Source of the DNA: Candidatus Shapirobacteria bacterium | GTDB lineage: Bacteria; Patescibacteriota; Microgenomatia; UBA12405 | DNA: 64,000 nt | NCBI GenBank assembly: GCA_028704885.1 | Contig: JAQWEN010000001.1 | Location: 350,679-414,678, forward strand | Direction of reading: 5' to 3' | Shown here: positions 20,680 to 46,905 of the stretch, one piece after another | Position numbering within the stretch: position 1 is the stretch's first letter | How the letters are laid out: every line of letters begins with the position of its first letter | Notes under the pieces: generated by a model | What the model saw: the letters and a program-made list of their open reading frames with translations, nothing else | Database searches by the model: none | Told to the model about the DNA's origin: nothing | Program-made: the position numbers and the translations under genes

Positions 20680-21724
20680 TTCTGACCAAACCAATGGCGA
20701 CAAAAAGAGTTAAAAGTGATGATCCCCCGTAGGAAATAAAAGGAAGAGGAACCCCAGTTAATGGAATTAAGGCAGCGATAGCGGAAATATTAATTAAACT
20801 TTGATAGGCAATCCAACAAGCGGTACCGGAAACTAGTAAACTTTGGAATGGATCAACTATTGTTTGAGAAAATTTTAGCAAGTAATTTATTAAAGAAAGA
20901 TATATTAACAGAACGACAAAGAGACCAATAAAACCAATTTCCTCTCCTATAACAGCCAGAATTGAATCGGTTGATATTTTGGGTAAAAATTTATATTTTT
21001 GGTCTGAATTGGCAAAACCTTTACCAAAGAGGCCTCCAGATGAAAGAGTCAAAATAATTTGATTACTGTGATAAGAAGAAGTTTCTTGATTTTGTTGTGG
21101 TTCTAGAAAAGTTTTTAGTCTGGCAGATCGATAAGGAGAAAGAAAAATTAGAGGGATACTTAAAACTAAAATAAGACTAATAATTCCAAACAAAGGCATA
21201 ACGTCGCCACCGGAAAGATAATAAATAGAACCAACAATTGCAGAAATTAGAATGGCGGTACTTAAATTTGGTTCGATGATTATAAGAATAAAAGGAATTC
21301 CTAAGTAAAGAATTAAATTTTTTATATGACGTTTTTCTTCTTTAGAAAAGAGATAAGCAAAATAAATGACAGAGCTTAGTTTTAAAATTTCTGATGGCTG
21401 GATGCTGGTAAAACCTAAATTAAGCCAACGTCTGGCCCCTAAAGCCTGATTGCCAAGTCCGGGAATTAAAACTAATATTAGGCCTAAAATAGAAGCTAGA
21501 TAAAAAATAAATGAAAATTTTTTAATAGTTTCAATTTTAATTTTAGAGGTTATATAAAAAGAAACTAGGCCTAATGCAAGCCAAAATCCCTGTTTTTTAA
21601 TAAAGAAAAATTTATCTCCGATAGTGGAATTGGCCTCACTTAAAGAAGAAATAGAAATAAAAATAAGACCAATAAAAATGAGACTAAAAACTAAAAATAG
21701 TAAGGGCGATTTAGTTTTTTTCAT
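20546..21724 (-). CDS. ftsW: SEDS-family cell division protein FtsW
   Basis: ISTDSILAVIGEEIGFIG, GVPLPFISYGGSS; dcw position upstream of murG. The polar C-terminal tail overlaps the murG 5' end by about 130 nt. Confidence 0.8.
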   Translation of the reverse strand: MKKTKSPLLFLVFSLIFIGLIFISISSLSEANSTIGDKFFFIKKQGFWLALGLVSFYITSKIKIETIKKFSFIFYLASILGLILVLIPGLGNQALGARRWLNLGFTSIQPSEILKLSSVIYFAYLFSKEEKRHIKNLILYLGIPFILIIIEPNLSTAILISAIVGSIYYLSGGDVMPLFGIISLILVLSIPLIFLSPYRSARLKTFLEPQQNQETSSYHSNQIILTLSSGGLFGKGFANSDQKYKFLPKISTDSILAVIGEEIGFIGLFVVLLIYLSLINYLLKFSQTIVDPFQSLLVSGTACWIAYQSLINISAIAALIPLTGVPLPFISYGGSSLLTLFVAIGLVRNVEKNQKMLLYSKSDHSQNKKDDYYHRDTSHSSSRTHSTIKDRS

Positions 21725-22826
21725 TTAAATTTTTAGGAATAGAAATTGGATTAGTGGTTTTGGATAAAGGATAAGAAAAATTTATTTTTTTACAGGTATA
21801 GTTATCTTTATTTTTAGGAGTTATTTCAGAGCCAATAATTTTTTTGTTATTAAATCTAGCTTGTTCGGATTTTATATCGATTTGATAATCAATTTTCAAA
21901 AATTCAGCTAAGTGAAAATAAAAAAGAGGAATAACTTTCTGATCAAGTTCAAGCTTGGTATAAAAAGCAAAGGAAGCAGTTAATCGAGGGTTACATTCTA
22001 GAAGATAAACCTTATTTTTATCAATCAAAAAATCAAGACCAAAAAATCCCTTATAACCAATTTCTTTTATAATTTTTCCAAAATTTTCGGTTATGGTATT
22101 AATTTCTTCGACTATTTTTGGTGGAGCAAAAGATGGCCATTGACGACCAACTGTAGTAAAAGGGTTTTGAGTAAAAGGTTTAATGCCAGTATATTGAAGG
22201 GCAGGAGGACTTTGAATTAGACCAAACTTGGTAAGACTGCAATTGTTTAACAAAGAATAAGAAGATGCAATAAAAGGGCTGTATTTAGTAATAACTTCTG
22301 AAGAAATTTTATCTTTAATTTCATCCCAATTTGAGGCAGAAAAGGTACTGTTTCCGGCCCAACCAAAATGAGTTTGGAGAACTAATTTTTGACCATAAAG
22401 TTGTTGATATTTTAAAAAGTTTTTTTGATTAAAGGTATCTATAGAAAAAGGAATTGTCGGCAGATTGTATTTTTGACAAAGCTTAGCAAATTTAATTTTA
22501 TCTTCTAAAAAGCGATTGATCGGCGAGGGATTACTGACATTTACCCAATTATTTCGTTGACATAAAATGTCAATTTTAGCTGATGGTTTAAATGGGATTA
22601 TGGCTGGAATAAGAGAATTTGAAGTCGATTTTATGTATTCAATTACTTTAGAATTACTAAGAAGTTTACCGCTATTTTTAATTTTTATAGATGGATAATC
22701 AGAGAGATAAATTTTATGAAAATTTTTAAGTTGAGGTAAATTGATATCTAAAAATTTATCAACGACTAAAAAATAGAAGGCAAATTTTGAATTATTGATG
22801 ATATTTTCTAAATTTATCTTTGACAT
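21711..22826 (-). CDS. ATP-grasp carboxylate-amine ligase (not Ddl-like by motif)
   Basis: GLDFLIDKNKVYLLECNPRLTASF is a generic ATP-grasp C-motif (RimK/CarB style E-x-N-P-R) rather than the Ddl E-x-N-T-x-P-G-x-T; a ~150-aa N-domain precedes it. Start overlaps the PLP gene by 13 nt and the end overlaps ftsW by 14 nt. Confidence 0.6.
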   Translation of the reverse strand: MSKINLENIINNSKFAFYFLVVDKFLDINLPQLKNFHKIYLSDYPSIKIKNSGKLLSNSKVIEYIKSTSNSLIPAIIPFKPSAKIDILCQRNNWVNVSNPSPINRFLEDKIKFAKLCQKYNLPTIPFSIDTFNQKNFLKYQQLYGQKLVLQTHFGWAGNSTFSASNWDEIKDKISSEVITKYSPFIASSYSLLNNCSLTKFGLIQSPPALQYTGIKPFTQNPFTTVGRQWPSFAPPKIVEEINTITENFGKIIKEIGYKGFFGLDFLIDKNKVYLLECNPRLTASFAFYTKLELDQKVIPLFYFHLAEFLKIDYQIDIKSEQARFNNKKIIGSEITPKNKDNYTCKKINFSYPLSKTTNPISIPKNLNEKN

Positions 22827-23587
22827 CCGGTGAGTATTATGACTGGATAATCGCCAACATCTAAATTATTTTTTATAGCTTTTTTTAGGCCAGCAAAAGC
22901 CATCGCACCTTCAAGAGAAGTTTTAATGTTGTTTGATTCTAGCGTTTTTTGAGCTTCTAAAATATCTTGATTTTGGATAATTAACTCTGAACCTTTAGAA
23001 TTTTTGACAGTGGAATTAACTTTATTTTTTAAAGGTTGATATTTAACAGTTAAAGCATCAGTTAAGATGGTGTTTTCTGGTTTAACAGCAAAAAATTTGA
23101 CAGATGGACTTAAAGCCTGGGAAATACCTAAAAGAGTGGTGCCGCTACCGACAGGAACAAAAATACTGGTTATTTGAGGTAATTCACTTACTAATTCTTT
23201 GCCAATTTCTTGATAACCAATTAAGGCTGATGGATCAGTTGATTGGCGAAGAAAATAGGCTTTATTTTTTTTGGAAAATTTAATAGCATCACTGATGGGT
23301 TTGTCGGAAATAATTATTTGACAATTATTTTTTTTAATTAAATCAAGTTTGTTTTGGTTGACTTTTGGAGAAAGGAAAACAGTTAAATTAATTTGATTAA
23401 GATGACAAAAATAGACAGCAGAAATAGCAGCGTTGCCAGTACTGGAAATAACAGCACTCTTAAAACCTTGTTTTTTTAAATTTGCTATTTGAAAAATTAA
23501 GCTTCGGTCTTTAGCTGAACCAGTAATATTAAGATCTTCTCTTTTAAAATATATATTTTCTAATTTAATTAAAGGAGTGTTTGCCAT
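22814..23587 (-). CDS. Compact PLP-dependent fold-type II enzyme (CysK/ThrC/Trp-synthase-beta superfamily)
   Basis: TPLIKLENIYFKREDLNITGSAKDRS (PLP-Lys motif), ISSTGNAAISAVYF, and C-terminal SLEGAMAFAGLKK...VIILTGCQR matches the CysK-type C-terminus. At 257 aa it is shorter than canonical CysK/ThrC. Confidence 0.65.
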   Translation of the reverse strand: MANTPLIKLENIYFKREDLNITGSAKDRSLIFQIANLKKQGFKSAVISSTGNAAISAVYFCHLNQINLTVFLSPKVNQNKLDLIKKNNCQIIISDKPISDAIKFSKKNKAYFLRQSTDPSALIGYQEIGKELVSELPQITSIFVPVGSGTTLLGISQALSPSVKFFAVKPENTILTDALTVKYQPLKNKVNSTVKNSKGSELIIQNQDILEAQKTLESNNIKTSLEGAMAFAGLKKAIKNNLDVGDYPVIILTGCQR

Positions 23588-23627
23588 ATAATAGCTTAAT
23601 TATACTAGTTATTAATTTTAATAAAAC

Positions 23628-23786
23628 ATGAACGAAAAAGTTATTTGTCCGGATTGTCAAACAGAAATTGAATTAATTGAAGCCACAATGGTTGGAGATA
23701 TTATTGAATGTCCAGAATGTGGGACCGAAGTAGAAATTTTATCTCTAAATCCCCTAAAATATCGGGAATTAATTGAGGAAAAGTAA
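23628..23786 (+). CDS. Unannotated 52-aa zinc-ribbon protein resembling LysW/ArgW amino-group carrier proteins
   Basis: ATG 23628, TAA 23784-23786. Translation: MNEKVICPDCQTEIELIEATMVGDIIECPECGTEVEILSLNPLKYRELIEEK. The pseudo-repeat CPxC..E.EL....G.IIECPECG.E.EI..L.PL mirrors the LysW pattern as I recall it (Thermus CPECGAELRLENPELGELVVCEDCGAELEVVGLDPLRLE), but it ends EEK rather than EDWGE. It falls below the ORF-track length cutoff. Confidence 0.45.
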   Translation: MNEKVICPDCQTEIELIEATMVGDIIECPECGTEVEILSLNPLKYRELIEEK

Positions 23787-24323
23787 TCGATAAAAACCTT
23801 GATGGATAAATTTTTTATCAGTAAGATCGGCTTGGCCATATTTTACTCCCCTACCAGAAAAAGAACTATCAACATAATTGATAATATTACCCTGTTTTTC
23901 GATGATAAATAAAACATGGTGACCATTTTTTTGGCGGACTAAATCACCGGTTTGAATGTTGTTTAAATCGGTTATTTCCTTGGAAATTGGAGCGGAGGTA
24001 AGCATGTCAGCGGAAGTTTTTCGGGGATTAAGGTTAGTTTCAAAATAAAAATTTAACAATTGGCAAACAAGACCAGAACAATCGATTCCAAGATGATTCT
24101 TTTTTTGAAAGTTATAAAATTCTTGATTGGTTAATTTAACCAAATCTATTTTTTGTTTTTGAGCAAGTCTAATAGTTTCAGTAGCAATTTGTCGATAATT
24201 GCCTTTACCACCAAGAAATTGTTCCTTAATTATTTTGCCGTCTTTAAGGATGTTTTTACTATAGGGTAAGCCAATATAATATTGAATTTCCTGTTTTAAT
24301 AAATCTAATTTATTCCCAGCCAT
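23769..24323 (-). CDS. NlpC/P60-family cysteine peptidase (papain-like Cys/His)
   Basis: GIDCSGLVCQLL is the catalytic Cys motif DCSGLV; GHHVLFII supplies the His. First ATG at 24323; the ORF track extends to a TTG at 24389. Confidence 0.55.
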   Translation of the reverse strand: MAGNKLDLLKQEIQYYIGLPYSKNILKDGKIIKEQFLGGKGNYRQIATETIRLAQKQKIDLVKLTNQEFYNFQKKNHLGIDCSGLVCQLLNFYFETNLNPRKTSADMLTSAPISKEITDLNNIQTGDLVRQKNGHHVLFIIEKQGNIINYVDSSFSGRGVKYGQADLTDKKFIHQGFYRLLFLN

Positions 24324-25339
24324 AATCCAAAAATTGCTAATATAATCCCAGCTAACCAAGCGCGCATAACTATCTTTGGTTCTTCCCAACCAATACTTTG
24401 AAGAGTTAAATGAAGAGGGGCAGCGGGAAATATTTTTCTTTTTAAATATTTTTTACTAAGTAATTGAATGCCACTAGACATACCTTCGATAATGAAAGGA
24501 GCACCGACAATTATTAAGGGGACTATTTTTCCTAAAAGAAGAGCAATAACAGCGAAGGTGGCTCCAAAAGAAAGGGAACCAACATCACCAAGCCAAATTC
24601 TGGCTGGATAGACATTAAAATATAAGAAAGCGATTAGGGCGCCAATCCAAAGAGCTAAAAATGAGGAAATAACAGTATCTAGAGAATTATTGGCTAAAAT
24701 CCAAAATGCAAATAAAGCAATCATTAGTAATCCACTAGAAAGTCCATCTAGACCGTCAGTAATATTAAAGAAATTAGCAAAACCAGTAATAATAATAGTA
24801 GAAATGGGAATGAAGAAAAAACTCAGATGAACAGCTCCGAAAAATGGTAGATAAATAAATTCTATTTTTAGTTGAAAATAAATCATTAAAGAAATAATTA
24901 ACGAAATTATTATTTGTAAAATGAATTTATGGATCATTCTTAATCCAAAAAAACCAGTTCTTTTAAAGCCAAAGAATTTATTAATATCATCGTAAAGACC
25001 TAATAATCCGAAACTAATAAAGGTAAAGAATAGAATAAATAATTCTTGTTCTATGTTGTAATTAGAGGAAATAAAAATTCGAGAGAATTTGAGAATAGGG
25101 AAAAGAATTATAAACATGAGGCAAACAGAGACGATGATTAACAGGCCTCCACCGACAGGAGTTCCTGATTTTTGATTGTGAAATTTATCAAAAATAGTGG
25201 TTCTTTTATTTTGAAAATCAGTGGTTTTTTGAACTTGTCGTTGGAATTTTAGTTTATAAAGAAGATTAATAAAAGGAACAACTAAAATACTAGAGATTAA
25301 GAAGGAAAAAAGGACTAGACCGAGATATAAGTGCATCAT
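24305..25339 (-). CDS. mraY: Phospho-N-acetylmuramoyl-pentapeptide transferase MraY
   Basis: NFFNITDGLDGLSSG, DDINKFFGFKR, multi-TM. Confidence 0.9.
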   Translation of the reverse strand: MMHLYLGLVLFSFLISSILVVPFINLLYKLKFQRQVQKTTDFQNKRTTIFDKFHNQKSGTPVGGGLLIIVSVCLMFIILFPILKFSRIFISSNYNIEQELFILFFTFISFGLLGLYDDINKFFGFKRTGFFGLRMIHKFILQIIISLIISLMIYFQLKIEFIYLPFFGAVHLSFFFIPISTIIITGFANFFNITDGLDGLSSGLLMIALFAFWILANNSLDTVISSFLALWIGALIAFLYFNVYPARIWLGDVGSLSFGATFAVIALLLGKIVPLIIVGAPFIIEGMSSGIQLLSKKYLKRKIFPAAPLHLTLQSIGWEEPKIVMRAWLAGIILAIFGLWLGIN

Positions 25340-25343: not shown

Positions 25344-26672
25344 TTAGGTTTTTATATACTCTATGTTAGCACCTAAAGAACAAAGACGTTCAGCTAATTT
25401 TTCATATCCTCTTTCAATATATTCAACACCGTCAATAATTGAAATGCCGGGTGCTGTAAGAGCGGCAACAGTGGCGGAAGCTCCAGCTCGAAGGTCGTTA
25501 ATGACAAAATTGGCTGGTTTGAGCATGGTGGGTCCATAAATTTTTACACCGTGGAAATATTCTGGATTATCACTGGCTTGGTTAAATTGATAGTAACTAT
25601 CAGGATCGTCAATGATTGGATTAAAAAATTTAAATTTGCTGCCCATTTTTTTAAGATTTTCAATGTGTTGAAATCTGTTTGGAAAAACTGTTTCAATAAG
25701 AGAACTACAACCGACAGTTTGGGTTAAAAGTACAGTAAAAATTGCCTGCCAGTCAGTCATAAATCCTGGTTCTGGGCCAGTTTCAATATCAATACTGGTT
25801 AACGGCTTTACCCATTGAATACAAATTTCATCATTACCAATTCTGACTTCGGCCCCCATTTTTTTTATAGTATCTAAAAAGGTTTTGACTATATCTGGTT
25901 TGATTCTTAAGATGCAGATAGAACCTTTGGTTGCCAAAGCGGCACAAGCAAAAGTAACAATTTCATTTCGATCACAAATTACACTGTGTTCGGTTCCATT
26001 TAGAGAAGAAACTCCCTGAATAGTAATTCTTTTTTCATCGGTTGGGTCTCTTTGAATTTTAGCCCCCATTTTATTTAACATTAAAATAAGATCATCTATT
26101 TCTGGTTCAAGAGCGGCATTATCAATAATGGTTTCACCTTCAGCTAGAACGGCGGTCATAATAATTACTTCGGTGACAGTATGAGATGGTTTGGTAAAAG
26201 TATAATGAGTACCAATAATTTTGTCGGTATTAAAGGTAATTTTATGATCTGTTTCGGAAACTTTAATATTCATTTGAGAGAAACAATCAAAAAGACGATC
26301 AAGAGGTCGGTTGCCTAATTTGTCTCCTCCTGGAGACGGAATGGTGGCGGTGCCAGTTCTGGCGAGAAGTGGAGCCACAAAAATAAAAGAAGTTCTAGAT
26401 TTTTCACCAGTACCACTGGGAACAATTGAATTAGTTATTTCTGGAGTAATTAATTCAAGACAATGCTCCCCTGTTTGTTTTACTTGACAGCCGAGACTTT
26501 TAGCAATACTGGTAGTTATTTTTACATCGGATATCTGAGGAACATTATTTAACAAGACGGTTTTGTCGGTCAACATTGAAGCAATTACTTGTTTGAAACT
26601 AGCGTTCTTGGCACCTCTAATAGAAACTTCGCCTTTAAGTTGTTTTCCGCCGGTTATTATGTATCTGGACAT
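25344..26672 (-). CDS. murA: UDP-N-acetylglucosamine 1-carboxyvinyltransferase MurA
   Basis: ITGGKQLKGEVSIRGAKNASFKQVIASML...LNNVPQISDV; 442 aa. Confidence 0.9.
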   Translation of the reverse strand: MSRYIITGGKQLKGEVSIRGAKNASFKQVIASMLTDKTVLLNNVPQISDVKITTSIAKSLGCQVKQTGEHCLELITPEITNSIVPSGTGEKSRTSFIFVAPLLARTGTATIPSPGGDKLGNRPLDRLFDCFSQMNIKVSETDHKITFNTDKIIGTHYTFTKPSHTVTEVIIMTAVLAEGETIIDNAALEPEIDDLILMLNKMGAKIQRDPTDEKRITIQGVSSLNGTEHSVICDRNEIVTFACAALATKGSICILRIKPDIVKTFLDTIKKMGAEVRIGNDEICIQWVKPLTSIDIETGPEPGFMTDWQAIFTVLLTQTVGCSSLIETVFPNRFQHIENLKKMGSKFKFFNPIIDDPDSYYQFNQASDNPEYFHGVKIYGPTMLKPANFVINDLRAGASATVAALTAPGISIIDGVEYIERGYEKLAERLCSLGANIEYIKT

Positions 26673-26675: not shown

Positions 26676-28049
26676 TTATTTTAAAGAATTAATAATAGAT
26701 TTGACAATCTTGTTTGCCTCAAAACCGCCAGAACTCATATTTATTAAAATGTCACCACTTTTAAGATTTTGTTTGTAAAAATTAACAATATCTTCGTCTA
26801 TGGGAATATAAATTAAATTTTGACCAATGATATCTCTAAAATCTTTGGCAGTACTGCGATTATTTTTGTCGATAATATTATTATAGTTTAATTTAGATAA
26901 AACAATTTCAGAAGCTAAAGAGAAAGCATTTTTAAAATCTTTTAAACTTTCTTTATGTTGAATAAAAGAGGCATGAGGTTGATATAAAACTTTGATATTT
27001 CTTTTGGGAAAATGAGATTTAATGGCTGATAATGTAGATTTGATTCTGTTTGAAGATTGGGCAAAATCATCAAAAATCATGATATTTTTTTTATCAATAA
27101 TTTTTTCGATTCGACGTTTAATGCCTTTAAAAGTTAAAACAGCCTTTTTAATATCTGTTTGATTTAGATTAAGACTGTCGGCCATAGCAACTGCGGCTAA
27201 AATATTTTCAAAATTTAGTTGGCCGATTAATTTGGTTTTAATTTGAATAGTATTTCTGGGAGTTCTAATCTCTAAAAGAGAATAATTCTTTTTTATTTTG
27301 ATATTTTTCAGATAATAATCGGAATTGGATGAATTATAAGTAATTATTTTCGATTTGGAATAAAGACTTAATTCTTTGGTTTGAAAGCCTTTGGAATTAA
27401 TAAGTAAAAATCCTTTTTCGGGAATATTAGTTATTAATTTTTTAAAAGCATTAAAATTAGCAATTTCGGTTGAATAGGAATCTTTGTGCTCCCAATCAGC
27501 ACTGGTTAATAATAAAAATCTGACTGGATAATACAAGAATTTGGCTTGATCGTCGAGTCCATGAATTGATTCATCAGCTTCGACAATAGACCAATCTGAG
27601 GAAGAAATATTGGTAGCCGGAAAATGGTTAATAGCTTCGCCGCCAAACATATAGTTTGGATTGAGATTTGATTGACAAAAAATCCAAGAAATTAAAGAAG
27701 TAATAGTTGTTTTACCATAAGTTCCGGCAATTAAAACAGAATTTTCTTTAATTAAGTTTTCGGCAATAAATTGACTTGCTGAAATATATTTTATATTTAA
27801 TTTTTTAATTTGGTCGAATTCTTCTTTGGTATTTTTAAAATTAGAAAATGAAGAACCGATTATGGCTAAGTCGATAGTGGAGTCAATTTTGGAAGAATTT
27901 ATTTTAATATCAGTTTTTTTAAGAAGAGTACTGACAGGGGGATATATTTTTTCCTGATCAGAACCGGTAACTATATGACCTTCTTTTTTAAGAGCAACAG
28001 CCAAGGAGGCCGTCATAGTTCCAGCTATTCCTAAAATATGGATGTGCAT
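26676..28049 (-). CDS. MurC/Mpl-family Mur ligase; N-terminus most similar to murein-peptide ligase Mpl
   Basis: MHIHILGIAGTMTASLAVALKKEGHIVTGSDQEKIYPPVSTLL closely parallels E. coli Mpl MRIHILGICGTFMGGLAMLARQLGHEVTGSDANVYPPMSTLL (from memory); P-loop IAGTYGKTT; EADES. Confidence 0.7.
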   Translation of the reverse strand: MHIHILGIAGTMTASLAVALKKEGHIVTGSDQEKIYPPVSTLLKKTDIKINSSKIDSTIDLAIIGSSFSNFKNTKEEFDQIKKLNIKYISASQFIAENLIKENSVLIAGTYGKTTITSLISWIFCQSNLNPNYMFGGEAINHFPATNISSSDWSIVEADESIHGLDDQAKFLYYPVRFLLLTSADWEHKDSYSTEIANFNAFKKLITNIPEKGFLLINSKGFQTKELSLYSKSKIITYNSSNSDYYLKNIKIKKNYSLLEIRTPRNTIQIKTKLIGQLNFENILAAVAMADSLNLNQTDIKKAVLTFKGIKRRIEKIIDKKNIMIFDDFAQSSNRIKSTLSAIKSHFPKRNIKVLYQPHASFIQHKESLKDFKNAFSLASEIVLSKLNYNNIIDKNNRSTAKDFRDIIGQNLIYIPIDEDIVNFYKQNLKSGDILINMSSGGFEANKIVKSIINSLK

Positions 28050-28076: not shown

Positions 28077-28670
28077 TTAAACATATGGAATCCAATTACT
28101 ATCTTTAAAATATTCAAAACCAGGCATATTTCTTTTGTAATAACCTGACTCTTGAGAAAAACGACCAAGATAACAATATTTTAAGCCTAATCCTTGACTG
28201 TCGATTATAACTTGGAGAACTAATCTGATTGGTAAATTACTGTTGGCAAAAGCTGGATTGTAAAAAACATAAGCAATATGGCTAATTTCTTTTGAAAAAT
28301 AACACAAAGAATAGGCAATAATTTTATTTTGATCGTCTTTCCAAATATATAGATAATTAAAAATATGATTTCTAAAAACGTTTTTTACGGAACTGACTGG
28401 AAAATCCCAAGCAAGGGTTTTTGTCCAACTAATAATTTCTTTTTGAATTTTAAAATTATAATCAAAATCTTTTAGAGCTATTTTTTCAAAAGTAAAGTTT
28501 TCGGTTTTTCTTAAAATTCGGCGATTTTCTGAACTTAAATTGAAATTTTCTAAATTAGAACGACAACTGGTTTGAAAATAAAATGAATTTTTATCGTTTC
28601 TTTGGGGTAAAAGTCCGTTTTTATAATTTTCCTCAATACTATTAGTATTTTTTAAATTGAATTGAGTCAT
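28077..28670 (-). CDS. Ate1/Bpt-like aminoacyl-tRNA-protein transferase homolog (ATE_C-like), tentative
   Basis: SHIAYVFYNPAF...NLPIRLVLQVI and YCYLGRFSQESGYYKRNMPGFEYF parallel recalled Ate1 C-domain segments (SSVYFFYDPDY...[37 protein letters not shown]). No CGYC N-motif is present. Confidence 0.35.
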   Translation of the reverse strand: MTQFNLKNTNSIEENYKNGLLPQRNDKNSFYFQTSCRSNLENFNLSSENRRILRKTENFTFEKIALKDFDYNFKIQKEIISWTKTLAWDFPVSSVKNVFRNHIFNYLYIWKDDQNKIIAYSLCYFSKEISHIAYVFYNPAFANSNLPIRLVLQVIIDSQGLGLKYCYLGRFSQESGYYKRNMPGFEYFKDSNWIPYV

Positions 28671-28672: not shown

Positions 28673-29974
28673 TTATTTTATTTTTCTAAGTCTAAAAGCG
28701 GTTCTGAAAGCTTCTGCTTCAGACCAAGGATATTCGGTGTGACCATGAAGAATAGTGGTCTCATGGCCTTTACCACAAGCAATAACAACATCATTTGGTT
28801 GACTTAGTTTAATAGCTAAGTTGAAAGCATCTTGACGATTGGGGATATTAAAATAAACAAATTTATTTTTTGATAATTCAATTATTTTTTGAATTTGTTT
28901 TTTAGTTTTGATTTCTTGATAATCAATCAATTCTGATTTTTTAGGATCTATGCCACCAATTATCTGTTTGTTAATATTTTCTATTTTTTCATTTCTAGTG
29001 TCATCAGAGGTAATTAAGGCAATATTAGCTAATTTAGAAACAATTTCACCCATTTTAGGACGTTTGGATTGATCTCGTCCACCAGTGGCTCCAAAAATAA
29101 CAATAAGATTACCTTTGTTAATTTTTTTAAGTGATGAAAGTGACGATTCTAGGGCAAAAGGAGTATGGGCAAAATCTATAATAGTTTTAAATTTAAAATC
29201 ATTTGAAATTTCTTCTCGACGACCTTTGGTTTCGGGAAAATGCTCGATGGCTTTTTGGACAAAAGATGAATCAATTTTTAATTTTTGACAAACGGCTATG
29301 GCTAGAAGGATATTATAAATTTGATATTCGTAATTACTATCGGTGGTAAATTTCTGATCATTAACTTCAAAACTAAGAAGATTTTGATCTAATTTAATTT
29401 TTTTGGCTTGATAGTCTGAATTTTCTTTAATACTGAATGTTTTAAAAGGAACTTTAATTTGTTTTTTAATAATTTCGAAAGATTGATCATCTTTATTTAA
29501 AACGGCATTTTTTGATAAAGAAAATAATTTGGCTTTGGTATTAATGTAATTATTTAAATTTTTGTGATAATCAAGATGTTCATGGGAAGTGTTGGTAATT
29601 CCAGAAATTTCAAAATTACATCCAGAAAAACGATACTGATCAAGAGCATGAGAAGTAACCTCACAAACAACATGAGTTATTCCAGCCTTAACCATTTCAG
29701 CAAGAATTTTTTGAAGTAAAGATGGGTCTGGGGTGGTAGTGTGAAAACCAGTGTCGATTTCCCGATCTTCAATTTTGGCACCAATAGTAGTAATTAAGCC
29801 TGTTTTTAGACCAGATTGCTTTAAAATTTCATGAATTAAGGTACAGGTGGTAGTTTTACCATCGGTTCCAGTAATTCCAATAAGAGTCAATTTTCTTGAA
29901 GGAAATCCGTAGTAAAAGTTATAAAAAATACTTTTAGGTAGATGAATTCCAATATTTTTAAGTTTTTGAATCAT
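28673..29974 (-). CDS. murE: UDP-MurNAc-tripeptide synthetase MurE-like Mur ligase lacking the usual N-terminal UDP-binding domain
   Basis: FYYGFPSRKLTLIGITGTDGKTTT (P-loop), IIDFAHTP (D-x-A-H-x-P), IVIFGATGGRDQSKRPKMG...ALITSDDTRNE, ACGKGHE; only about 25 aa precede the P-loop. Confidence 0.7.
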   Translation of the reverse strand: MIQKLKNIGIHLPKSIFYNFYYGFPSRKLTLIGITGTDGKTTTCTLIHEILKQSGLKTGLITTIGAKIEDREIDTGFHTTTPDPSLLQKILAEMVKAGITHVVCEVTSHALDQYRFSGCNFEISGITNTSHEHLDYHKNLNNYINTKAKLFSLSKNAVLNKDDQSFEIIKKQIKVPFKTFSIKENSDYQAKKIKLDQNLLSFEVNDQKFTTDSNYEYQIYNILLAIAVCQKLKIDSSFVQKAIEHFPETKGRREEISNDFKFKTIIDFAHTPFALESSLSSLKKINKGNLIVIFGATGGRDQSKRPKMGEIVSKLANIALITSDDTRNEKIENINKQIIGGIDPKKSELIDYQEIKTKKQIQKIIELSKNKFVYFNIPNRQDAFNLAIKLSQPNDVVIACGKGHETTILHGHTEYPWSEAEAFRTAFRLRKIK

Positions 29975-37350: not shown

Positions 37351-37989
37351 TTACCAACGAGACAACATGGACATTGGGGTTTTGAAGATTATGAGAATTT
37401 CTTCAACAAAGGATTGCTTCTTAATGTATTCAGCATCCATCTTGGCTCGATCTTCAAAAGTAATATCATTTCGGCCTGAAGTTTGCCAAACACCAGTAAT
37501 ACCAGGTTTAGCGGTTCTGATAATTTGAATGTATTTTTTGGTTTTGGGGTATTTTAAGGCCTGTTCTTGAAGTTCTTCTTCTCGATAAGCTCGTGGGCCA
37601 ACTAAACTCATGTCCCCTTTTAAAACGTTAATTAATTGAGGAAATTCGTCGATAGTTAGGGATCTAATTTTTTTACCGATTGGAGTAATACGAGGATCTT
37701 CACACATGGGTAATTTCCAACCGCTTTCTTTATATTTTTTCCATAGTTCGGGATAATTTTCTCGAAGTCTCTTGTCATTATCACCGGTATACATGGAACG
37801 AAATTTATACATCCAAAATTCATGACTGTTTTTGCCAACTCTTTTTTGTTTAAAAAAAATTGGTCCAGTCGATCCCATTTTAATTAAAAGCATAGTAATC
37901 AGCATAATAGGAGAAAACAAAATAAGAAGAACTAATGAACCAACGATGTCGATTGTTCTTTTAAAAGAGGTAAATAATATTTTTTTCAT
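37351..37989 (-). CDS. Undecaprenyl-phosphate sugar phosphotransferase (WbaP/WcaJ-type initiating transferase, short form)
   Basis: FKFRSMYTGDNDKR...DEFPQLINVLKGDMSLVGPRA is the Bac_transf signature. Confidence 0.85.
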   Translation of the reverse strand: MKKILFTSFKRTIDIVGSLVLLILFSPIMLITMLLIKMGSTGPIFFKQKRVGKNSHEFWMYKFRSMYTGDNDKRLRENYPELWKKYKESGWKLPMCEDPRITPIGKKIRSLTIDEFPQLINVLKGDMSLVGPRAYREEELQEQALKYPKTKKYIQIIRTAKPGITGVWQTSGRNDITFEDRAKMDAEYIKKQSFVEEILIIFKTPMSMLSRW

Positions 37990-37991
37990 TT

Positions 37992-39080
37992 TTAACCTAA
38001 AAAGTATGTTTTATATTTTTTGTTTTTCACCATCAAGCTTACTAAATCTCGGACACTAAAGCTAGAGTCTAGGTTACAAACTAAAAGAGCATCGGAAGTA
38101 TCGATGATGGCTAAATTATTTACCCCAACTAGACCAATTAGTTTTTTTCTTTGGCCGGAAATAAGGCATTTTTGAGAATTAATATTCAGAAATTGGGTGT
38201 CGGGATTAATAATGGCCAAATCATCTTTTCTTTTAATTGAACTGGCAAAAATGGTTTCCCACTCACCTATATCACTCCAATCAAAAGTGGCCGGAACCAT
38301 AGTCATTTTTGATGATTTTTCAGAAATTGCTCTATCTATGGATAATTCAGGTGATTGTTTATATATCTGTTCAATTTTTTTAGGGTAATTTAAATTTTTT
38401 TCCAAATCTTTAAAAATGGCAAAATATTCTGGTTGTAATTTTTCAAATTCAGAAAGAATAGTGGAGACAGAAAAAGTATAAATACCGGAATTCCAGTAAG
38501 AATTTTTATCAATTAATTTTTGCGCTTTTACAGGATCTGGTTTTTCAATAAATTTGGCAACATGATAATAATCATCTATTTTTTTGTCAGGGCAAATATA
38601 ACCATAAGAGGAATCGGGTTTAGTTGGTTTAATGCCAATGGTAACAATGGTGTCAGTTAATTGGGCGACTCTTTTGGCTTTGGTTAGAGTTTGCTTAAAT
38701 CTGGCAATATTTTTAATATAGTGATCGGAAGGAAGAGTACTAATGATGGCATTGGGGTCGATTTGTTTAATTCTGGCAACAGAATAGAGAATAGCCATAG
38801 CAGTGTTTTTCTTTTCCGGTTCGATAATTACGTTTTTAGTTAAATTAAAATCTTTAGCGATTTTAATAATTTTGTCAAAATAATTTTGTCCAGAAACTAT
38901 ATAAATATTTTGAGTATCAACAGTTCGTTGAGATCTTTTGATTGTTTGTTCTAAAATTGATTTTTTATCTAAAAGAGGGAGAAACTGCTTGGGATTGTTT
39001 TTTCTAGATAATGGCCAAAGACGTGGTCCAGTGCCGCCGCAGAGAATAAAAATATAGTGTTTTATTGATGATTCTGCCAT
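37992..39080 (-). CDS. manC: Mannose-1-phosphate guanylyltransferase-like sugar nucleotidyltransferase
   Basis: FILCGGTGPRLWPLSRKNNPKQFL. Confidence 0.75.
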   Translation of the reverse strand: MAESSIKHYIFILCGGTGPRLWPLSRKNNPKQFLPLLDKKSILEQTIKRSQRTVDTQNIYIVSGQNYFDKIIKIAKDFNLTKNVIIEPEKKNTAMAILYSVARIKQIDPNAIISTLPSDHYIKNIARFKQTLTKAKRVAQLTDTIVTIGIKPTKPDSSYGYICPDKKIDDYYHVAKFIEKPDPVKAQKLIDKNSYWNSGIYTFSVSTILSEFEKLQPEYFAIFKDLEKNLNYPKKIEQIYKQSPELSIDRAISEKSSKMTMVPATFDWSDIGEWETIFASSIKRKDDLAIINPDTQFLNINSQKCLISGQRKKLIGLVGVNNLAIIDTSDALLVCNLDSSFSVRDLVSLMVKNKKYKTYFLG

Positions 39081-40141
39081 AAGAGATCTATTTCTTTTTT
39101 AAAGTTTAACATAAAGTTTTGGCTGGAAAAGTTTTGAGAATTTTTTCGGCAAATGTCTTTAGAAAAATTTTTGGGATTAAATTTTTTAATAGCTAAAATT
39201 AAACTTTTGACAGTTTGATGGTTGAAAAAAATACCGGTTTTATTATTAATAACTGTTTCAGTTAATCCCCCTTTATTGTAAGCAATAACCGGCTTACCAC
39301 AAGCTTGAGCCTCAATTGGGGTGAGACCAAAATCTTCTAATTGAGGACAGATTAAAGCCTGACAATTTTGATAAAGATTTAAAAGTTTTTTGTCGTCGAT
39401 TTTGCCGATAAATTCGATATTCGAATTTGGTTTAACTATTTTTTTTAGAGTTTTACAATCTCTACCAACTCCGACTATTTTTAGTTTGAAATTAAGTTTT
39501 TGGCAAGCTTTTATAGCAATGTCAATTCTTTTATATTTGACAAGTCGGGAGACGATTAAAAAATATTTTTCTTTTGGTTTAGTTTTTGAAGGAATAAAAA
39601 ATGAAGTGTCTATTCCTGGATAAATTATTTTTGCTTTTCTTTTATAAATATCGGCAATTCTTTTTTGAACGGTTTTTGAATTGCAAAAAAAATAATTTGG
39701 CTTTTGGGCATAAATTTTATCTTTTTGTTTATATTTTGAGATTAAATAAGAAAGGGGCCAAGAGTATTTTTGTTGATAAATGTGGCGATTAACATTATGA
39801 AGATAACAAATAAAAAGGGTTTTTGAGGGGACAGATAGATGATGACCAATGGTTGATGAAGTGGAGATAACTATGTCAAATTTGGAAAAATCAAAATTGC
39901 GAACGGCTGTTGAATAAAGTGGAGTATGGAGAATATTATTTTTTTTAGATGGAGATAATTTATTTAAAAACGACGGAATAATTTTAACTTTTTTTGGAAG
40001 CCAATCGGTTTTTTTGGGATCGTAAATAATCGTAAAAATCGGTGCTTTTGGATAAAGTTTAATTAAATCAAGAAGAACTTTTTCAGCTCCGCCCCATTGA
40101 TTTAACCAGTCGTAAAAAAGGGCGACTTTTGGCTTATTCAT
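39062..40141 (-). CDS. Glycosyltransferase family 4
   Basis: GT-B architecture; E..GLTPIEAQACGKPVIAYNKGGLTETV C-motif. Confidence 0.7.
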   Translation of the reverse strand: MNKPKVALFYDWLNQWGGAEKVLLDLIKLYPKAPIFTIIYDPKKTDWLPKKVKIIPSFLNKLSPSKKNNILHTPLYSTAVRNFDFSKFDIVISTSSTIGHHLSVPSKTLFICYLHNVNRHIYQQKYSWPLSYLISKYKQKDKIYAQKPNYFFCNSKTVQKRIADIYKRKAKIIYPGIDTSFFIPSKTKPKEKYFLIVSRLVKYKRIDIAIKACQKLNFKLKIVGVGRDCKTLKKIVKPNSNIEFIGKIDDKKLLNLYQNCQALICPQLEDFGLTPIEAQACGKPVIAYNKGGLTETVINNKTGIFFNHQTVKSLILAIKKFNPKNFSKDICRKNSQNFSSQNFMLNFKKEIDLLWQNHQ

Positions 40142-41244
40142 AATAAATTTTTATAAACAGCCAGAGTTTGTTTGGCGGTTTTTGTCCAGGAATATTTTTT
40201 GACTTGTTGATTACCTAATTTAATCAATTTTTGACGAAGATCAAGATTGTCTTTGAGTTGGTTAATTTTTTGAACTAGATCTGGAGCACTGTTGGGATCA
40301 AAATATAAAACTGAATTGTTGTAAATTTCTGGTAAGCAACTGGCATTAGAGGAAATAACAGGGCAATTTAGAGCCATAGCTTCTAAACCAGTTAAACTGA
40401 AACCTTCCATCAATGACGGGTGAACCAAAGCTATGGCTTTTTTATAAACATTTTTAAATTCTTTGTCGTCTAAATAACCTAAAAATTCAACTTGGTTTTC
40501 GAGACCCATTTCAACAATTTTTACTTTTAATTTTTCACTAAAAAAACTTCTGGCACAAATAATTTTAAGACTAATATCGGGTAAACTTTTTAGAGCTTCG
40601 AGAATAACTTTAATATTTTTATGGGTATATAAATTGCCGGTATAAATAATGTATTTTTGCGGAGTTTTAATAAAATCATCTTGATTATTAATTAAAAAAG
40701 TCGGGTCGACGGCTTCATGAGTGGTGACGATCTGAGATGGATTTAATTTATATTTTTCAATCAAATATTGGCGCCAAAAATTACTCGGAACAATGATTTG
40801 ATTTCTTTTAACAATAATATTAGTTAAAAACAAATAACCTAAATGTTTGATGGCATATAAATATTGGTTTTTAGTAGTAGTATCTTTGCCAGTAAAAAAA
40901 TGTTTGATTAGATCGTGAATAGTAACGACTGATTTTTTAGAATAAAGAATTGGTTTGTTAAAATGAGTGAAATGAACCAGATCGGCTTTCAAACCATAAA
41001 TAAGGAAAGGTAGAAAAAGTTGTTCAGCTAGGGAATAATGTTTAATATTAGTGGTGACATAATTGAAATTGTCACCTAAATTTTTTTTAATCTCTGCCTC
41101 TAAATTTTTATAAATAATTAAAGTAAATTTATATTTTTTAAAATCCGGAAGAGTAATTAAAGCTTTTAATAAATTTTTGGTGTAGCGACCAATTCCGGTG
41201 TGTTTTGGTCCATAAAGACGAGCATCTATTACTATATGTTTCAT
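40138..41244 (-). CDS. Glycosyltransferase family 4
   Basis: HPSLMEGFSLTGLEAMALNCPVISSNASCLPEI. Confidence 0.8.
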   Translation of the reverse strand: MKHIVIDARLYGPKHTGIGRYTKNLLKALITLPDFKKYKFTLIIYKNLEAEIKKNLGDNFNYVTTNIKHYSLAEQLFLPFLIYGLKADLVHFTHFNKPILYSKKSVVTIHDLIKHFFTGKDTTTKNQYLYAIKHLGYLFLTNIIVKRNQIIVPSNFWRQYLIEKYKLNPSQIVTTHEAVDPTFLINNQDDFIKTPQKYIIYTGNLYTHKNIKVILEALKSLPDISLKIICARSFFSEKLKVKIVEMGLENQVEFLGYLDDKEFKNVYKKAIALVHPSLMEGFSLTGLEAMALNCPVISSNASCLPEIYNNSVLYFDPNSAPDLVQKINQLKDNLDLRQKLIKLGNQQVKKYSWTKTAKQTLAVYKNLL

Positions 41245-42152
41245 AAATATTTAGCTTTAAAAACTCTTTGAATTTCTAACATCTTAATACCAGTCATAAC
41301 TAAAAATCTAACTGGAGCTGAATAACTAGAAAATAAATTTTCTTGATAAAAAATTCTCATAGCATCGGTGCTGGCCTTAGCGACTTTAATTTTTGTTTCT
41401 TGGGAAGCCTTGGAAAGATGTTTACTTTTACTAATTAGTCCAGAAGAAACTCCCTGAAAATGGGTTATTTTACAATTTGGATTAAAATATAAATTAAAAT
41501 TATTTTGTTTTAATTTATAACAAAAATCAAGGTCTTCACCATAGAAAAAATATTTTTCGTTCCACCATTTAATCTTGTCACCGACGGCTTTTTTGACCAT
41601 TAAAAAGGCACCGACACAGGCATCAATTTTATGAGGAATGCTTTTGTCTAAATTACCCATGAAATAACCAGAAAATATTTTTGAATTGGGAAATACTTTT
41701 GATAGGCCGCTGAAATGACATAAGGAATTCCAAGGAGTAGGAAAACCACGATGACATTCTGGCTGCATTTTACCGTTTAAGGCAAGGTCTATTTGACAAG
41801 TGGCGGCGTCGACATTTTTGTTTTGATCAAAAAATTCAATCATGTTTTTGAAAGTATTTTTTTGAACAATAGTGTCGGGGTTTAAAAAAAGAACGAATCT
41901 AGTTTTAGGGTTAATTTCTTTTAAGCCTTGATTATTGCCATGAGCAAAACCTTTATTGTTTTTTAGTTCGAGAAACTTAAAATCTGACGATTTAACAGTT
42001 TTGGCTAATTTAATACTGTCATCAGTAGAACAATTATCAACAATAATTACTTCATATTTGTAATTATCAATGTCGCTTTTAGTAATACTTTCAAGACATT
42101 TTTTTAAATAATCAGCAGAATTATAATTAAGAATAATAATTGATAAATCCAT
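41241..42152 (-). CDS. Glycosyltransferase family 2
   Basis: LSIIILNYNSADYLKKCLESI...VIIVDNCSTDDS. Confidence 0.8.
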   Translation of the reverse strand: MDLSIIILNYNSADYLKKCLESITKSDIDNYKYEVIIVDNCSTDDSIKLAKTVKSSDFKFLELKNNKGFAHGNNQGLKEINPKTRFVLFLNPDTIVQKNTFKNMIEFFDQNKNVDAATCQIDLALNGKMQPECHRGFPTPWNSLCHFSGLSKVFPNSKIFSGYFMGNLDKSIPHKIDACVGAFLMVKKAVGDKIKWWNEKYFFYGEDLDFCYKLKQNNFNLYFNPNCKITHFQGVSSGLISKSKHLSKASQETKIKVAKASTDAMRIFYQENLFSSYSAPVRFLVMTGIKMLEIQRVFKAKYL

Positions 42153-42153
42153 T

Positions 42154-43365
42154 TTATTTTTTGGTAATTTCTTTATAAATTTGATTTAGACCTTTAACAC
42201 TGTTTTGATAGGAATATTTACCACTAATTAATTTATTGGCTTCTTCGCCCATGGTAATTCTTTTTTTATCATTCTTTAAAAGATTAATAGTATTACCAGC
42301 AACATCTTTATAATCACAAATTATTGATTGTTTAAAATTTTCAATTTTAATTCCACCCATTCCTTCGGGAGTGGTAATAATGGGAAGACGACAAGCCATG
42401 GCTTCGAGAAATTTATTACGACTGCCTCCCCCACTACCCATTGGAGCGACTAAAGCCCAACAATATTGATAATAATACATAGGATCGTGTTCTCCGCCAT
42501 CAAAATCAGCTTCTTCAACAATAATATCTTTTGTTCGATAATGAGCGTAATAATCTGGAGCGCTGCGGCCAATAATATAAAATTTACATTCAGGAATTGC
42601 CTTTTTAATAGCCGGCCAAGAATCCTTAATAATCATTTCAACAGATTCACGATTTTGCATCCATTTCATATTGGAAACGCCAAAAAGAATTGAAGGAAAT
42701 TTACTTTTGACGGTTTTTGGTTTGGATTCAAAAAATTTATTATCAACTCCATTTTGAAAAAGTTCGATATCTTTTCGACCAGTGATTTTAGAGATTATTT
42801 TTTGATCTTCCTGGGCAAATGCGACGACAGTGTGAGTATTTTTCCAATAATAAGTTTCCCAATATTTAAGTTTTAAAACATCAAACCAAAGAAATGGGTA
42901 AATTAACTTTTTCCAACTTTTAACTGTTTTTATATAGTGTTCGTAGACGGCAAATTCAATGGTTTGATCAACGAGAACAATAGGAATTTTAGTTTTTGGG
43001 ATATTCGGCATCAAATAAAAACATTCGCAGTGGATTAGGTCATATTTATTATTGTCTAATTCAGTGGCAATGGTTTGTTTTAAATCATTGCTAATATAAT
43101 TGGCAACTAGAAAAGGATAAGTACTAAAACCAGTGTAAAGTATTTTTTTGAGTTCCCAAGTTTTACCACGTTTAACAACAATAACCTTTTTGCAAAATTG
43201 TTTAATTTCTTCTAAACCTTCTTGGTCTCGACTAAAACAAATTAAAGTTATATCGTTTTCGGCGGCTAAATATTTTATGGAATAATAGGAACTATTTTGA
43301 CCACCAGACTGGGCGCGACGAGGAAGGTAGGGAGTGATCATTAAAATTTTGCGTTTTTGAGTCAT
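42154..43365 (-). CDS. Glycosyltransferase, GT-B (GT4-like)
   Basis: N-terminal MITPYLPRRAQSGGQN and C-terminal GSGGGSRNKFLEAMACRLPIITT. Confidence 0.6.
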   Translation of the reverse strand: MTQKRKILMITPYLPRRAQSGGQNSSYYSIKYLAAENDITLICFSRDQEGLEEIKQFCKKVIVVKRGKTWELKKILYTGFSTYPFLVANYISNDLKQTIATELDNNKYDLIHCECFYLMPNIPKTKIPIVLVDQTIEFAVYEHYIKTVKSWKKLIYPFLWFDVLKLKYWETYYWKNTHTVVAFAQEDQKIISKITGRKDIELFQNGVDNKFFESKPKTVKSKFPSILFGVSNMKWMQNRESVEMIIKDSWPAIKKAIPECKFYIIGRSAPDYYAHYRTKDIIVEEADFDGGEHDPMYYYQYCWALVAPMGSGGGSRNKFLEAMACRLPIITTPEGMGGIKIENFKQSIICDYKDVAGNTINLLKNDKKRITMGEEANKLISGKYSYQNSVKGLNQIYKEITKK

Positions 43366-43383
43366 GTTTTTTTAAATTATAAA

Positions 43384-45722: not shown

Positions 45723-46261
45723 TTTTTCTTTTTTAAAAAAGATTTATAAATACAAAAGGCAAAGATAAGTGTGCCTTCGGTGAATAAAAAGGCAGTAATA
45801 CGTTTTGGAATAGAGGTAGGAATGGTTTTTATAGTAATTTTGGCCTTATATTCTTTGTCTTTAAAAATAAGTTTATTTTTAATTCTTTTTTCTGGTAAGG
45901 TAAAAACATCATTTTCCCATTCGAAACCATTGATATATAAAGATTCTTTGAATGGTAAAACATATTCTTCAAAATAGTAGCTTTGGATTGTATCACGAAT
46001 AATTTCTTTGGCTTTTTCGGGTGGATGATTGATGATTATTCGGAAAGAGCCACTATAATAGGCTTTATAAAAATTCATGACTTCAGTTCGAGTCATGTTG
46101 GTATAGTAAGCGGAAACGTTTTTAAGTTGGATGGTGTCGCCTGGTTCATCGGATCTAACACTGTTAACGAGATCCGGAAGAGTTGGAGTAGGACTGACTA
46201 GATAAACAATGGCAAAAATATTAAAAAGACAAAGTAGAGCGATTAATATTTTTTTAATCAT
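45719..46261 (-). CDS. Hypothetical membrane protein
   Basis: First ATG at 46261 (the ORF track's longer form begins at 46414 and overlaps the acetyltransferase); N- and C-terminal TM segments. Confidence 0.3.
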   Translation of the reverse strand: MIKKILIALLCLFNIFAIVYLVSPTPTLPDLVNSVRSDEPGDTIQLKNVSAYYTNMTRTEVMNFYKAYYSGSFRIIINHPPEKAKEIIRDTIQSYYFEEYVLPFKESLYINGFEWENDVFTLPEKRIKNKLIFKDKEYKAKITIKTIPTSIPKRITAFLFTEGTLIFAFCIYKSFLKKKK

Positions 46262-46262
46262 A

Positions 46263-46856: not shown

Positions 46857-46874
46857 ACAATTTATTATATATAT

Positions 46875-46903
46875 TAGTGCTCTGGTTCGCTAGTGCTCTG
46901 GTT
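46875..46903. repeat. Tandem direct repeat TAGTGCTCTGGTT(cgc)TAGTGCTCTGGTT in the 49-bp intergenic spacer
   Basis: Read directly. On the minus strand it sits just upstream of an ATATATATAAT -10-like element and the acetyltransferase ATG. Confidence 0.6.
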
Positions 46904-46905
46904 GA

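Follow-up and report, generated by a model that had tools for sequence, protein, structure and literature searches.

What is a relative of the enzymes that transfer amino acids from tRNA to proteins doing inside a peptidoglycan gene cluster? The question is raised by a 64,000-nucleotide stretch of DNA from Candidatus Shapirobacteria bacterium (assembly GCA_028704885.1, contig JAQWEN010000001.1, positions 350,679 to 414,678; hereafter the window, with a G+C content of 30.5%). Within its dcw (division and cell wall) operon, an open reading frame (ORF) of 197 amino acids (aa) at positions 28077..28670 of the minus strand, here called X, lies between a MurE-type ligase, denoted MurE', and a ligase of the MurC/Mpl family acting on UDP-N-acetylmuramic acid (UDP-MurNAc). 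An earlier interpretation of this DNA from its letters alone (the sequence-only reading) had delimited the ORF, noted a likeness of two of its peptide segments to the C-terminal domain of arginyl/leucyl-tRNA-protein transferases, and proposed a Fem-like branching of the peptidoglycan precursor. The ORF is as described and both segments are present in its translation. Our analysis places X among the Ate/Bpt-type aminoacyl-tRNA transferases, as a minimal homologue whose predicted role in peptidoglycan-precursor synthesis, the exact step aside, is well supported and whose closest partner is the Mpl-like ligase. On present understanding, the Mur enzymes of the cytoplasm (MurA-F) form a nearly universal pathway in which tRNA plays a part only through Fem-type branching of the side chain, and the Ate/Bpt branch of the aminoacyl-tRNA transferase superfamily was previously known for protein N-terminal tagging only. 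In an uncultivated radiation, this branch appears to be firmly coupled to the first Mur ligase, in at least 537 species. Literature searches yielded no description of Ate/Bpt-like genes within dcw clusters, of tRNA-dependent cell-wall synthesis in the Candidate Phyla Radiation (CPR) or of murD loss in Patescibacteria.

X as a truncated relative of the Ate/Bpt transferases

A Pfam scan of X at E ≤ 1 returned a single family, PF04377 (ATE_C), which matched residues 100–175 with E = 6.3e-5 and a score of 24.0 bits, against a gathering cut-off of 25. The sequence-only reading had named four Pfam families for comparison by HMMER; PF04377 was recovered, just under its cut-off, whereas PF04376 (ATE_N), PF03588 (Leu_Phe_trans, Aat) and PF02388 (FemAB) gave no match at E ≤ 1. 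Additionally, seven NCBIfam arginyltransferase (PRK01305) models matched X, the best of them with E = 7.7e-8 between residues 35–194 of X and positions 72–242 of a 256-position model. None of the seven scores came near its equivalog cut-off, the best being 31.9 bits against 267. The family around X is small, comprising 239 clusters at E ≤ 1e-3 in an exhaustive profile search of 1.8 billion representatives. Among its 89 full-length representatives, ATE_C was matched by 73 (E ≤ 0.01; best 3e-10), the Fem-related GCN5-related N-acetyltransferase (GNAT) family Acetyltransf_6 by 33, and ATE_N by none. When the X-family profile was aligned by HHalign with P0269, a protein at the edge of the family that carries both ATE_N and ATE_C, residues 32–193 of X matched residues 82–255 with a probability of 98.8% and E = 7e-17, the overlap with ATE_N being limited to the last part of that domain, from the final Cys onward. 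The proposed likeness to ATE_C was therefore borne out, as was the assignment of X to the Ate/Bpt branch of aminoacyl-tRNA-dependent GNAT transferases.

The structural evidence agrees with the profiles. The AlphaFold2 (AF2) model of X, with a predicted local distance difference test (pLDDT) score of 91 and a predicted template modelling score of 0.88, shows the ATE1-type fold, that is, a GNAT core with a mixed sheet contributed by the N-terminus. The next-best fold matches were the aminoacyl-tRNA-dependent MprF domains, FemX and an aminoacyl-tRNA-dependent peptide synthase, with ordinary acetyltransferases ranking lower. The homology rests on Pfam, NCBIfam, HHalign and this fold, and not on the PDB sequence-profile search, in which the X-family profiles retrieved ATE1 at a non-significant E of 1.7 only.

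X consists of the ATE_C-like GNAT core and the last part of ATE_N, and lacks the Cys cluster: residues 1–90 contain one Cys, and most family members have none to two. The absent part comprises the Cys4 metal site and most of ATE_N. Ate1 depends on this metal site for its stability and function, and the site shapes the pocket that receives the protein substrate (PMC9351520, PMC10115844). X is strongly constrained: an alignment of 37 homologues sharing 65–90% identity has 64 columns without variation, far more than expected by chance. G19, R37, S47-E48-N49 and R51 are invariant family-wide, and Y137, Y167, G169, Y178-K179 and W193 are nearly so. Ate1 and related transferases insert a basic helix into the acceptor-stem groove of the tRNA (PMC10115844), and the alignment suggests that the helix at residues 47–55 of X (SENRRILRK) corresponds to it. 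Similarly, the Y178-K179 pair of X would by motif be equivalent to Tyr303-Lys304 of Kluyveromyces lactis Ate1 and Phe304-Lys305 of FemX (PMC9351520), both assignments being residue mappings by alignment rather than by structural superposition. Motif offsets in the donor pocket, for which S255/S273/E277/Y289 of Ate1 and A/A/Q/L of Bpt served as references, point to Q153/V154 and C166 in X; this suggests a Bpt-like, uncharged pocket, but is too uncertain for the donor to be named.

Comparison with known systems situates X more precisely. Its closest sequence family is Bpt (ATE_N PF04376 plus ATE_C PF04377; PRK01305), with which it shares a similar size, the GNAT core, a basic S-x-N-R-R helix, a Y-x-Y-(L/V)-G strand, the Y-K pair and, presumably, aminoacyl-tRNA as the donor. 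Unlike Bpt, X has no Cys-rich ATE_N, the first 35–70 or so residues of Bpt being missing or replaced; it sits in a dcw operon beside Mur ligases instead of the N-degron context of Bpt, and its acceptor is probably a small molecule. Eukaryotic ATE1 (8TZV, 7TIF, 7WFX, 8E3S) exceeds 500 aa, contains a Zn or Fe-S Cys cluster and a variable domain, acts on protein substrates, and is 12–15% identical to X. The C-terminal domain of MprF, or aminoacyl-phosphatidylglycerol synthase (DUF2156), is a tandem GNAT that is anchored in the membrane and acylates a lipid hydroxyl; it has no sequence-family match with X. Sbb17 (PDB 9WQX), an example of the aminoacyl-tRNA-dependent synthases that make small peptides in natural-product pathways, belongs to another subfamily, found in secondary-metabolite clusters with no link to Mur ligases.

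Taken together, these comparisons identify X as a divergent, truncated Ate/Bpt relative at the edge of the curated family, presumably working in the manner of Ate/Bpt/Fem-type aminoacyl-tRNA transferases. It falls outside Ate/Bpt proper because the ATE_N Cys cluster is absent and the curated cut-offs are not reached, and it did not match the Fem family either. We describe X as a new subfamily within the Ate/Bpt lineage whose function is probably new and not directed at proteins; should X make the peptide that the Mpl-like ligase loads, its 197 aa would offer a minimal model for the catalytic core of Ate1. The finding also bears on annotation, since X is now labelled arginyl-tRNA--protein-N-Asp/Glu arginylyltransferase by the automatic pipeline of the Joint Genome Institute (JGI) and 'hypothetical' elsewhere, and its partners 'MurC' or 'Mpl'.

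Conserved coupling of X to an Mpl-like ligase

Relatives of X were detected in at least 537 species in a scan of one genome per GTDB species, and all titled records that carry them are Patescibacteria (Shapirobacteria, Woesebacteria, Dojkabacteria and the Microgenomates group). The order murE'-X-ligase is kept in about 80 species-level loci, down to 30% identity. Neighbours were counted over 81 loci with a separate X gene: the ligase lies directly downstream of X in all 76 readable loci, and murE' lies upstream in 77. The expectation that orthologues of X would accompany murE in related genomes, at a conserved dcw position, was thus confirmed. In the window, the start codon of X lies 2 nt past the murE' stop codon, and that of the ligase 27 nt past the stop codon of X. 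No tRNA genes were found near X in the operon surroundings. Many contigs with X relatives are titled 'uncultured Gammaproteobacteria bacterium' (L003, L005, L006 and about 35 more); by gene content and similarity they are Patescibacteria and are probably mislabelled.

Three subtypes of X can be distinguished by their N-termini, namely the short Shapirobacteria form, a form of about 261 aa with the pattern MKLFFSE...GFLPxR, and a form with the pattern YLSW...G(Y/A)xFTR. All three directly precede the ligase. Adjacency of X and the ligase persists where murE is not adjacent (L075, L076, L079, L080 and L088); in the third subtype, where murE is not nearby, a block consisting of an ATP-grasp gene, an unknown gene, an MraY-like family 4 glycosyltransferase gene, X, the ligase, a LysW-like gene and a PALP gene is kept together. 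Furthermore, one lineage encodes P0122 (645 aa), in which X is fused in frame to the ligase through a Pro/Ser linker. This fusion, located between ftsI and murE' on one side and murA on the other, is represented by seven member sequences from three assemblies, some of which may be re-assemblies of one groundwater dataset. The sequence-only reading had described X as translationally adjacent to murE and a Mur ligase; the adjacency to both is conserved, but the fusion and the loci without murE nearby single out the MurC/Mpl-like ligase, not MurE, as the tightest partner.

Outside the CPR, one family member (P0202, L087 3315–4085) was found on a Bacteroidota-like contig with a Por_Secre_tail neighbour. 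It is flanked by an Asp-Al_Ex transporter gene and by DUF2279 and Fic genes, with no cell-wall genes nearby. Another protein, P0187 (L086 8001–10430, 809 aa), joins an X-like domain to two further ones, a PPDK_N ATP-binding domain and a mobile domain of the PEP-utilizer type, and so shows the transferase family with an ATP-dependent partner that is not a Mur ligase. Since family members outside the CPR occur in other contexts, the link to the cell wall belongs to the CPR clades and not to the family as a whole.

The partner ligase contains all three Mur-ligase domains and scores below the cut-offs of both NCBIfam models of its family, with 240.7 bits for murC (cut-off 335) and 192.2 bits for mpl TIGR01081 (cut-off 389). 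Its best PDB match is the Psychrobacter Mpl structure 3HN7 (146 bits), the best MurC reaching 124 bits. Three of the Mpl-specific features described by Das et al. 2011 (PMC3060825) are present in it and conserved in X-linked ligases. These are an N-domain GSD..(I/V)(Y/F)PP motif (GSDQEKIYPP in the window), a loop insertion after EADE (EADE..LDDQAKF) and a C-terminal MS(S/N)GG(F/L) motif (MSSGGF). In the HMMER alignment, the loop aligns with that of Mpl, where MurC has a 6-residue deletion. Searches with crude regular expressions, which give lower bounds, found the three features in at least 62, at least 68 and at least 35 of 73 ligases, respectively, and several orthologues of the ligase are named Mpl by JGI. 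The Mpl-like label that the sequence-only reading gave to the neighbouring ligase agrees with these three signatures. The copy in GCA_028685145.1 (L001 8622–9995), a Candidatus Shapirobacteria assembly nearly but not fully identical to that of the window, reads IYPH where the window ligase has IYPP, and among the distant relatives of the ligase, P0425 and P0441 are fusions of a MurC-like protein to MurB (about 760 aa).

Mpl ligates preformed peptides onto UDP-MurNAc, and the mpl gene of Escherichia coli is a recycling gene located elsewhere in the genome. Besides the loop that follows EADE, the partner of X has the SD..(I/V)YPP motif and the MS(N/S)GGF C-terminus in common with Mpl, but it differs in its location inside the dcw operon, as the apparent primary ligase. 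Because these Mpl-like signatures are combined with C-terminal-domain motifs that are not those of Mpl, the ligase is here called a putative third clade of the MurC/Mpl family with Mpl-like traits.

The step at which X may act

The reading that we favour, quite possible although we would stop short of calling it probable, is that X is a stripped-down Ate/Bpt-type transferase recruited to peptidoglycan-precursor synthesis, where it acylates a free amino acid or peptide that the ligase then loads. Homology, fold, loss of ATE_N, gene order, fusion and Mpl signatures are observed; that X is active with aminoacyl-tRNA, which donor and acceptor it uses, and in which sequence the steps follow, we infer. 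The mechanism would proceed as follows. The invariant basic helix of X, S47-ENRRILRK, would bind a charged tRNA at its acceptor stem and CCA end. With the Y178-K179 pair, X would transfer the aminoacyl group to a small acceptor with a free amino group, either an amino acid or a short peptide and not a protein. As acceptor we favour D-Glu or a gamma-D-Glu peptide, whether newly synthesized or obtained by salvage, which would give a product such as L-Ala-D-Glu(-X). The Mpl-like ligase would then couple this product to UDP-MurNAc with ATP, and the precursor would be completed by MurE' and MurF', which lack the UDP-binding N-domain, and by MraY and MurG.

The argument for this order of steps starts from the fusion, as fused enzymes usually catalyse consecutive steps. 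The acceptor of an aminoacyl-tRNA transferase must be an amine, and neither UDP-MurNAc nor UDP-MurNAc-L-Ala has a free one, so that the only consecutive step open to X would precede the ligase. By inference, X would act no later than the step that loads the peptide onto UDP-MurNAc, and not after MurE or MurF, because the ligase is the tightest partner and the fused one, also where murE is not nearby, and because of the DDTR motif of MurE' discussed below. The classical acceptor of Ate/Bpt enzymes is an acidic N-terminal residue. The favoured reading fits this preference for acidic acceptors, as well as the fusion, the invariable adjacency of X and the ligase, the Mpl-like traits of the latter and the clusters without murD. 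The loss of the N-domain from MurE' and MurF' would be compatible with substrates that are not bound through UDP, and the apparently cytoplasmic NlpC/P60 peptidase of the cluster, together with an N-acetylmuramoyl-L-alanine amidase (Amidase_3, 209 aa) encoded between murE' and X in one locus (L071 5288–5917), fits a handling of free stem peptides. If X indeed makes a peptide that is loaded by an Mpl-like enzyme, the stem peptide would be built or salvaged by a route of a new kind. Such a route would link the charged-tRNA pool, and thereby translation, to wall synthesis in minimal genomes, and would explain the oddities of these dcw clusters, namely the missing murD and the truncated MurE and MurF.

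Several observations weigh against this reading. The motifs of the ligase C-terminal domain, proposed as the peptide-binding part of Mpl (PMC3060825), are not Mpl-like, with DDFAQSS in place of the DDFAHHP of Mpl and a MurC-like QPH, and the murC score of the ligase is above its mpl score. The position of X nearly always beside murE' fits a Fem-like role equally well. In the AF2 model of the P0122 fusion, the X half, where the alignment is shallow, has a pLDDT below 50, and the model carries no interface information. The absence of murD and of a second MurC is observed at the level of the clusters of the first two subtypes, and for murD also of the window, not genome-wide. In the third subtype a divergent MurD-like ligase (TIGR01087, 100.8 bits; cut-off 212) is encoded next to the block, on the other strand, so that a replacement of MurD by X is not required. 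Moreover, MurD could have been substituted by the ATP-grasp/PALP module that occupies its position, and the loss of the N-domain in MurE' and MurF' may simply reflect reductive evolution.

An extension of the favoured reading, to which we give a small but realistic chance, is that in a large part of the Patescibacteria the first stem peptide bond or bonds are tRNA-dependent, made by X with a donor such as Ala-tRNA, and that X and the ligase replace MurC and MurD in a convergent route. Given the loss of the UDP-binding domains from MurE' and MurF', assembly off the sugar may extend to much of the stem, and the route may be fed by peptides salvaged from the host. In a radical variant, the ligase may N-acylate an aminoacyl-tRNA with UDP-MurNAc, and X may move the resulting UDP-MurNAc-aminoacyl group to the next amino acid.

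Among the alternatives to peptide loading by the X-ligase pair, the proposal of the sequence-only reading survives best, although it too is rather unlikely. According to it, X would acylate the side chain of the position-3 diamino acid of UDP-MurNAc-tri- or pentapeptide, or of lipid II, and so form an interpeptide bridge. Its context is compatible, given the adjacency of murE' in 77 loci, the MurD-like gene of the third subtype and the precedent of Fem enzymes, but the specific proposal was not established. FemX, FemA and MurM (PF02388) are built of two GNAT-like domains, to which a coiled coil may be added, and their ligand is UDP-MurNAc-pentapeptide or lipid II, whereas X has a single GNAT-type domain, nothing like the UDP-MurNAc-peptide-binding domain of FemX and no Pfam FemAB match. 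Furthermore, the sole fused and closest partner of X is the first-step ligase, kept also where murE is elsewhere, and a Fem-like step would not be consecutive with it. DNPR is the motif of the diaminopimelate-adding MurE; by comparison, the Arg-containing DDTR found in MurE' of 61 of 74 loci gives no positive sign of a Lys-type, bridge-forming wall, although this argument is weak.

Slightly less likely still is another envelope role for X, either within a module formed with the ATP-grasp, PALP, LysW-like and NlpC/P60 genes or as a non-catalytic, tRNA-sensing subunit of the ligase. In such a module, X might, for instance, aminoacylate a carrier-bound or unusual amino acid of the stem peptide, or N-aminoacylate an amino sugar. 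The genes concerned do travel with X, as described below, but the evidence is not specific for any one of these variants; X is fused to the ligase and not to the ATP-grasp, PALP or LysW-like genes, and its conserved Y-K pair and basic helix are more in keeping with an aminoacyl-tRNA transferase capable of catalysis than with a pure regulator.

Finally, an N-degron enzyme that adds Leu or Arg to N-terminal Asp or Glu for degradation by ClpS/ClpAP, its operon position being incidental, would agree with the closest sequence families and the JGI label, but was rejected as very improbable since X has no ATE_N with its Cys4 protein-substrate pocket, scores 7–20 times below the NCBIfam equivalog cut-offs, and keeps an invariant place between Mur ligases over at least 80 species and three subfamilies, up to fusion with one of them, which this function would fail to explain, as the sequence-only reading had argued. 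No clpS, clpA or aat gene was found in a scan of the 64-kb window, about 16 ORFs between 46 and 62 kb not being included, nor in the annotation of the last 11 kb of the window and about 9 kb beyond.

The dcw cluster around X

The operon that contains X runs on the minus strand in the order rsmH, ftsL, ftsI, murE', X, ligase, murA, mraY, NlpC/P60, the LysW-like ORF on the opposite strand, PALP, ATP-grasp, ftsW, murG, an ORF of 127 aa, ftsA and ftsZ (Table 1).

Table 1. Genes of the X cluster in the window, with related ligases at other loci (designated L)
Feature	Position	Strand	Length and characteristics	Basis and remarks
X	28077..28670	-	197 aa, ATG start	Minimal Ate/Bpt-type aminoacyl-tRNA transferase homologue
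Partner ligase	26676..28049	-	457 aa; three-domain MurC/Mpl-family UDP-MurNAc ligase	NCBIfam, PDB match, Mpl-type motifs
MurE'	28673..29974	-	433 aa; MurE-type ligase without the ~90-aa N-terminal UDP-binding domain	TIGR01085
murA	25344..26672	-	EPSP_synthase family	Pfam PF00275, synteny
mraY	24305..25339	-	Glycos_transf_4	Same operon; stays with X and ligase even in the third-subtype block
NlpC/P60-like cysteine peptidase	23769..24389	-		Pfam NLPC_P60, E = 7.5e-5; conserved after mraY
LysW-like zinc ribbon	23628..23786	+	52 aa; CPxC...CPxCG, C-terminus ...LIEEK	PF21344; antisense to the operon
PALP	22814..23587	-	257 aa; fold-type II pyridoxal phosphate enzyme	Pfam PALP, E = 7e-40
ATP-grasp ligase	21711..22826	-	371 aa	Pfam ATP-grasp_3; PRK06524-like, 110 bits (NCBIfam); present in third-subtype blocks
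N-domain-less Mur ligases	L074 9021–10232; L081 15375–16586		~400–433 aa, P-loop near residue 35	Other loci
MurD-like ligases of the third subtype	L079 9226–10593; L076 8282–9643; L088 9691–11019	-		Next to PALP

The truncation of MurE' is evident from its alignment with TIGR01085 (356.7 bits), in which residues 19–426 match model positions 75–470, and from that with MurE of Thermotoga maritima (4BUB), which begins at residue 94 of the latter. The P-loop lies at residues 33–43, and the DDTR motif is present. The N-terminal UDP-binding domain is missing from MurE' in every locus, with a median length of 428 aa over 77 loci. MurF', where present in the cluster, likewise lacks its N-domain (403 aa, aligned from model position 65).

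In a canonical comparator (L091), the order is mraY, murD, ftsW, murG, an unannotated ORF of 214 aa, murC, murB and ddl. In the clusters with X, the usual place of murD, from mraY to ftsW, holds the NlpC/P60, LysW-like, PALP and ATP-grasp genes (window positions 21711–24389). No MurD-like ORF and no second MurC was found in the dcw clusters of about 80 loci of the first and second subtypes; in clusters of the second subtype, murA, murB, ddl, murE', murF', the ligase and mraY occur together, and murD alone is missing. In the 64-kb window and 9 kb beyond one end of it, no murD, murF, murB or ddl was found.

The genes at this place form a module that might supply or attach an unusual residue of the stem peptide, or substitute for MurD or Ddl. 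The homologue of the NlpC/P60-like peptidase in L081 matches its family with E = 9e-16, and the window protein shows no hydrophobic N-terminal stretch by eye, a signal-peptide predictor not having been run. The LysW-like ORF recurs in 55 of 85 related loci, in each case antisense to the operon, and the distant block of the third subtype has it too. LysW proteins are amino-group carriers served by ATP-grasp ligases, and the ATP-grasp gene lies two genes from the LysW-like ORF. The relatives of PALP in NCBIfam and the PDB are serine racemase, threonine dehydratase and threonine synthase, and the gene accompanies X and the ligase throughout the three subtypes. For the ATP-grasp ligase, no PDB relative was found by sequence, and an identity as Ddl was rejected.

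DUF4012, recO and glyS are located directly upstream of the dcw cluster, an arrangement kept in related loci. The glycyl- and isoleucyl-tRNA synthetase genes that flank the cluster were considered as a hint to the donor of X and rejected, as they represent ordinary ancestral neighbourhoods; recO-glyS and ftsZ...ileS are common in gene orders of the Firmicutes type. Elsewhere in the window, minus-strand operons for surface polysaccharides (37351–52496 and 4162–7077) encode glycosyltransferases, a Bac_transf priming transferase, a nucleotidyl transferase and Wzy-like polymerases.

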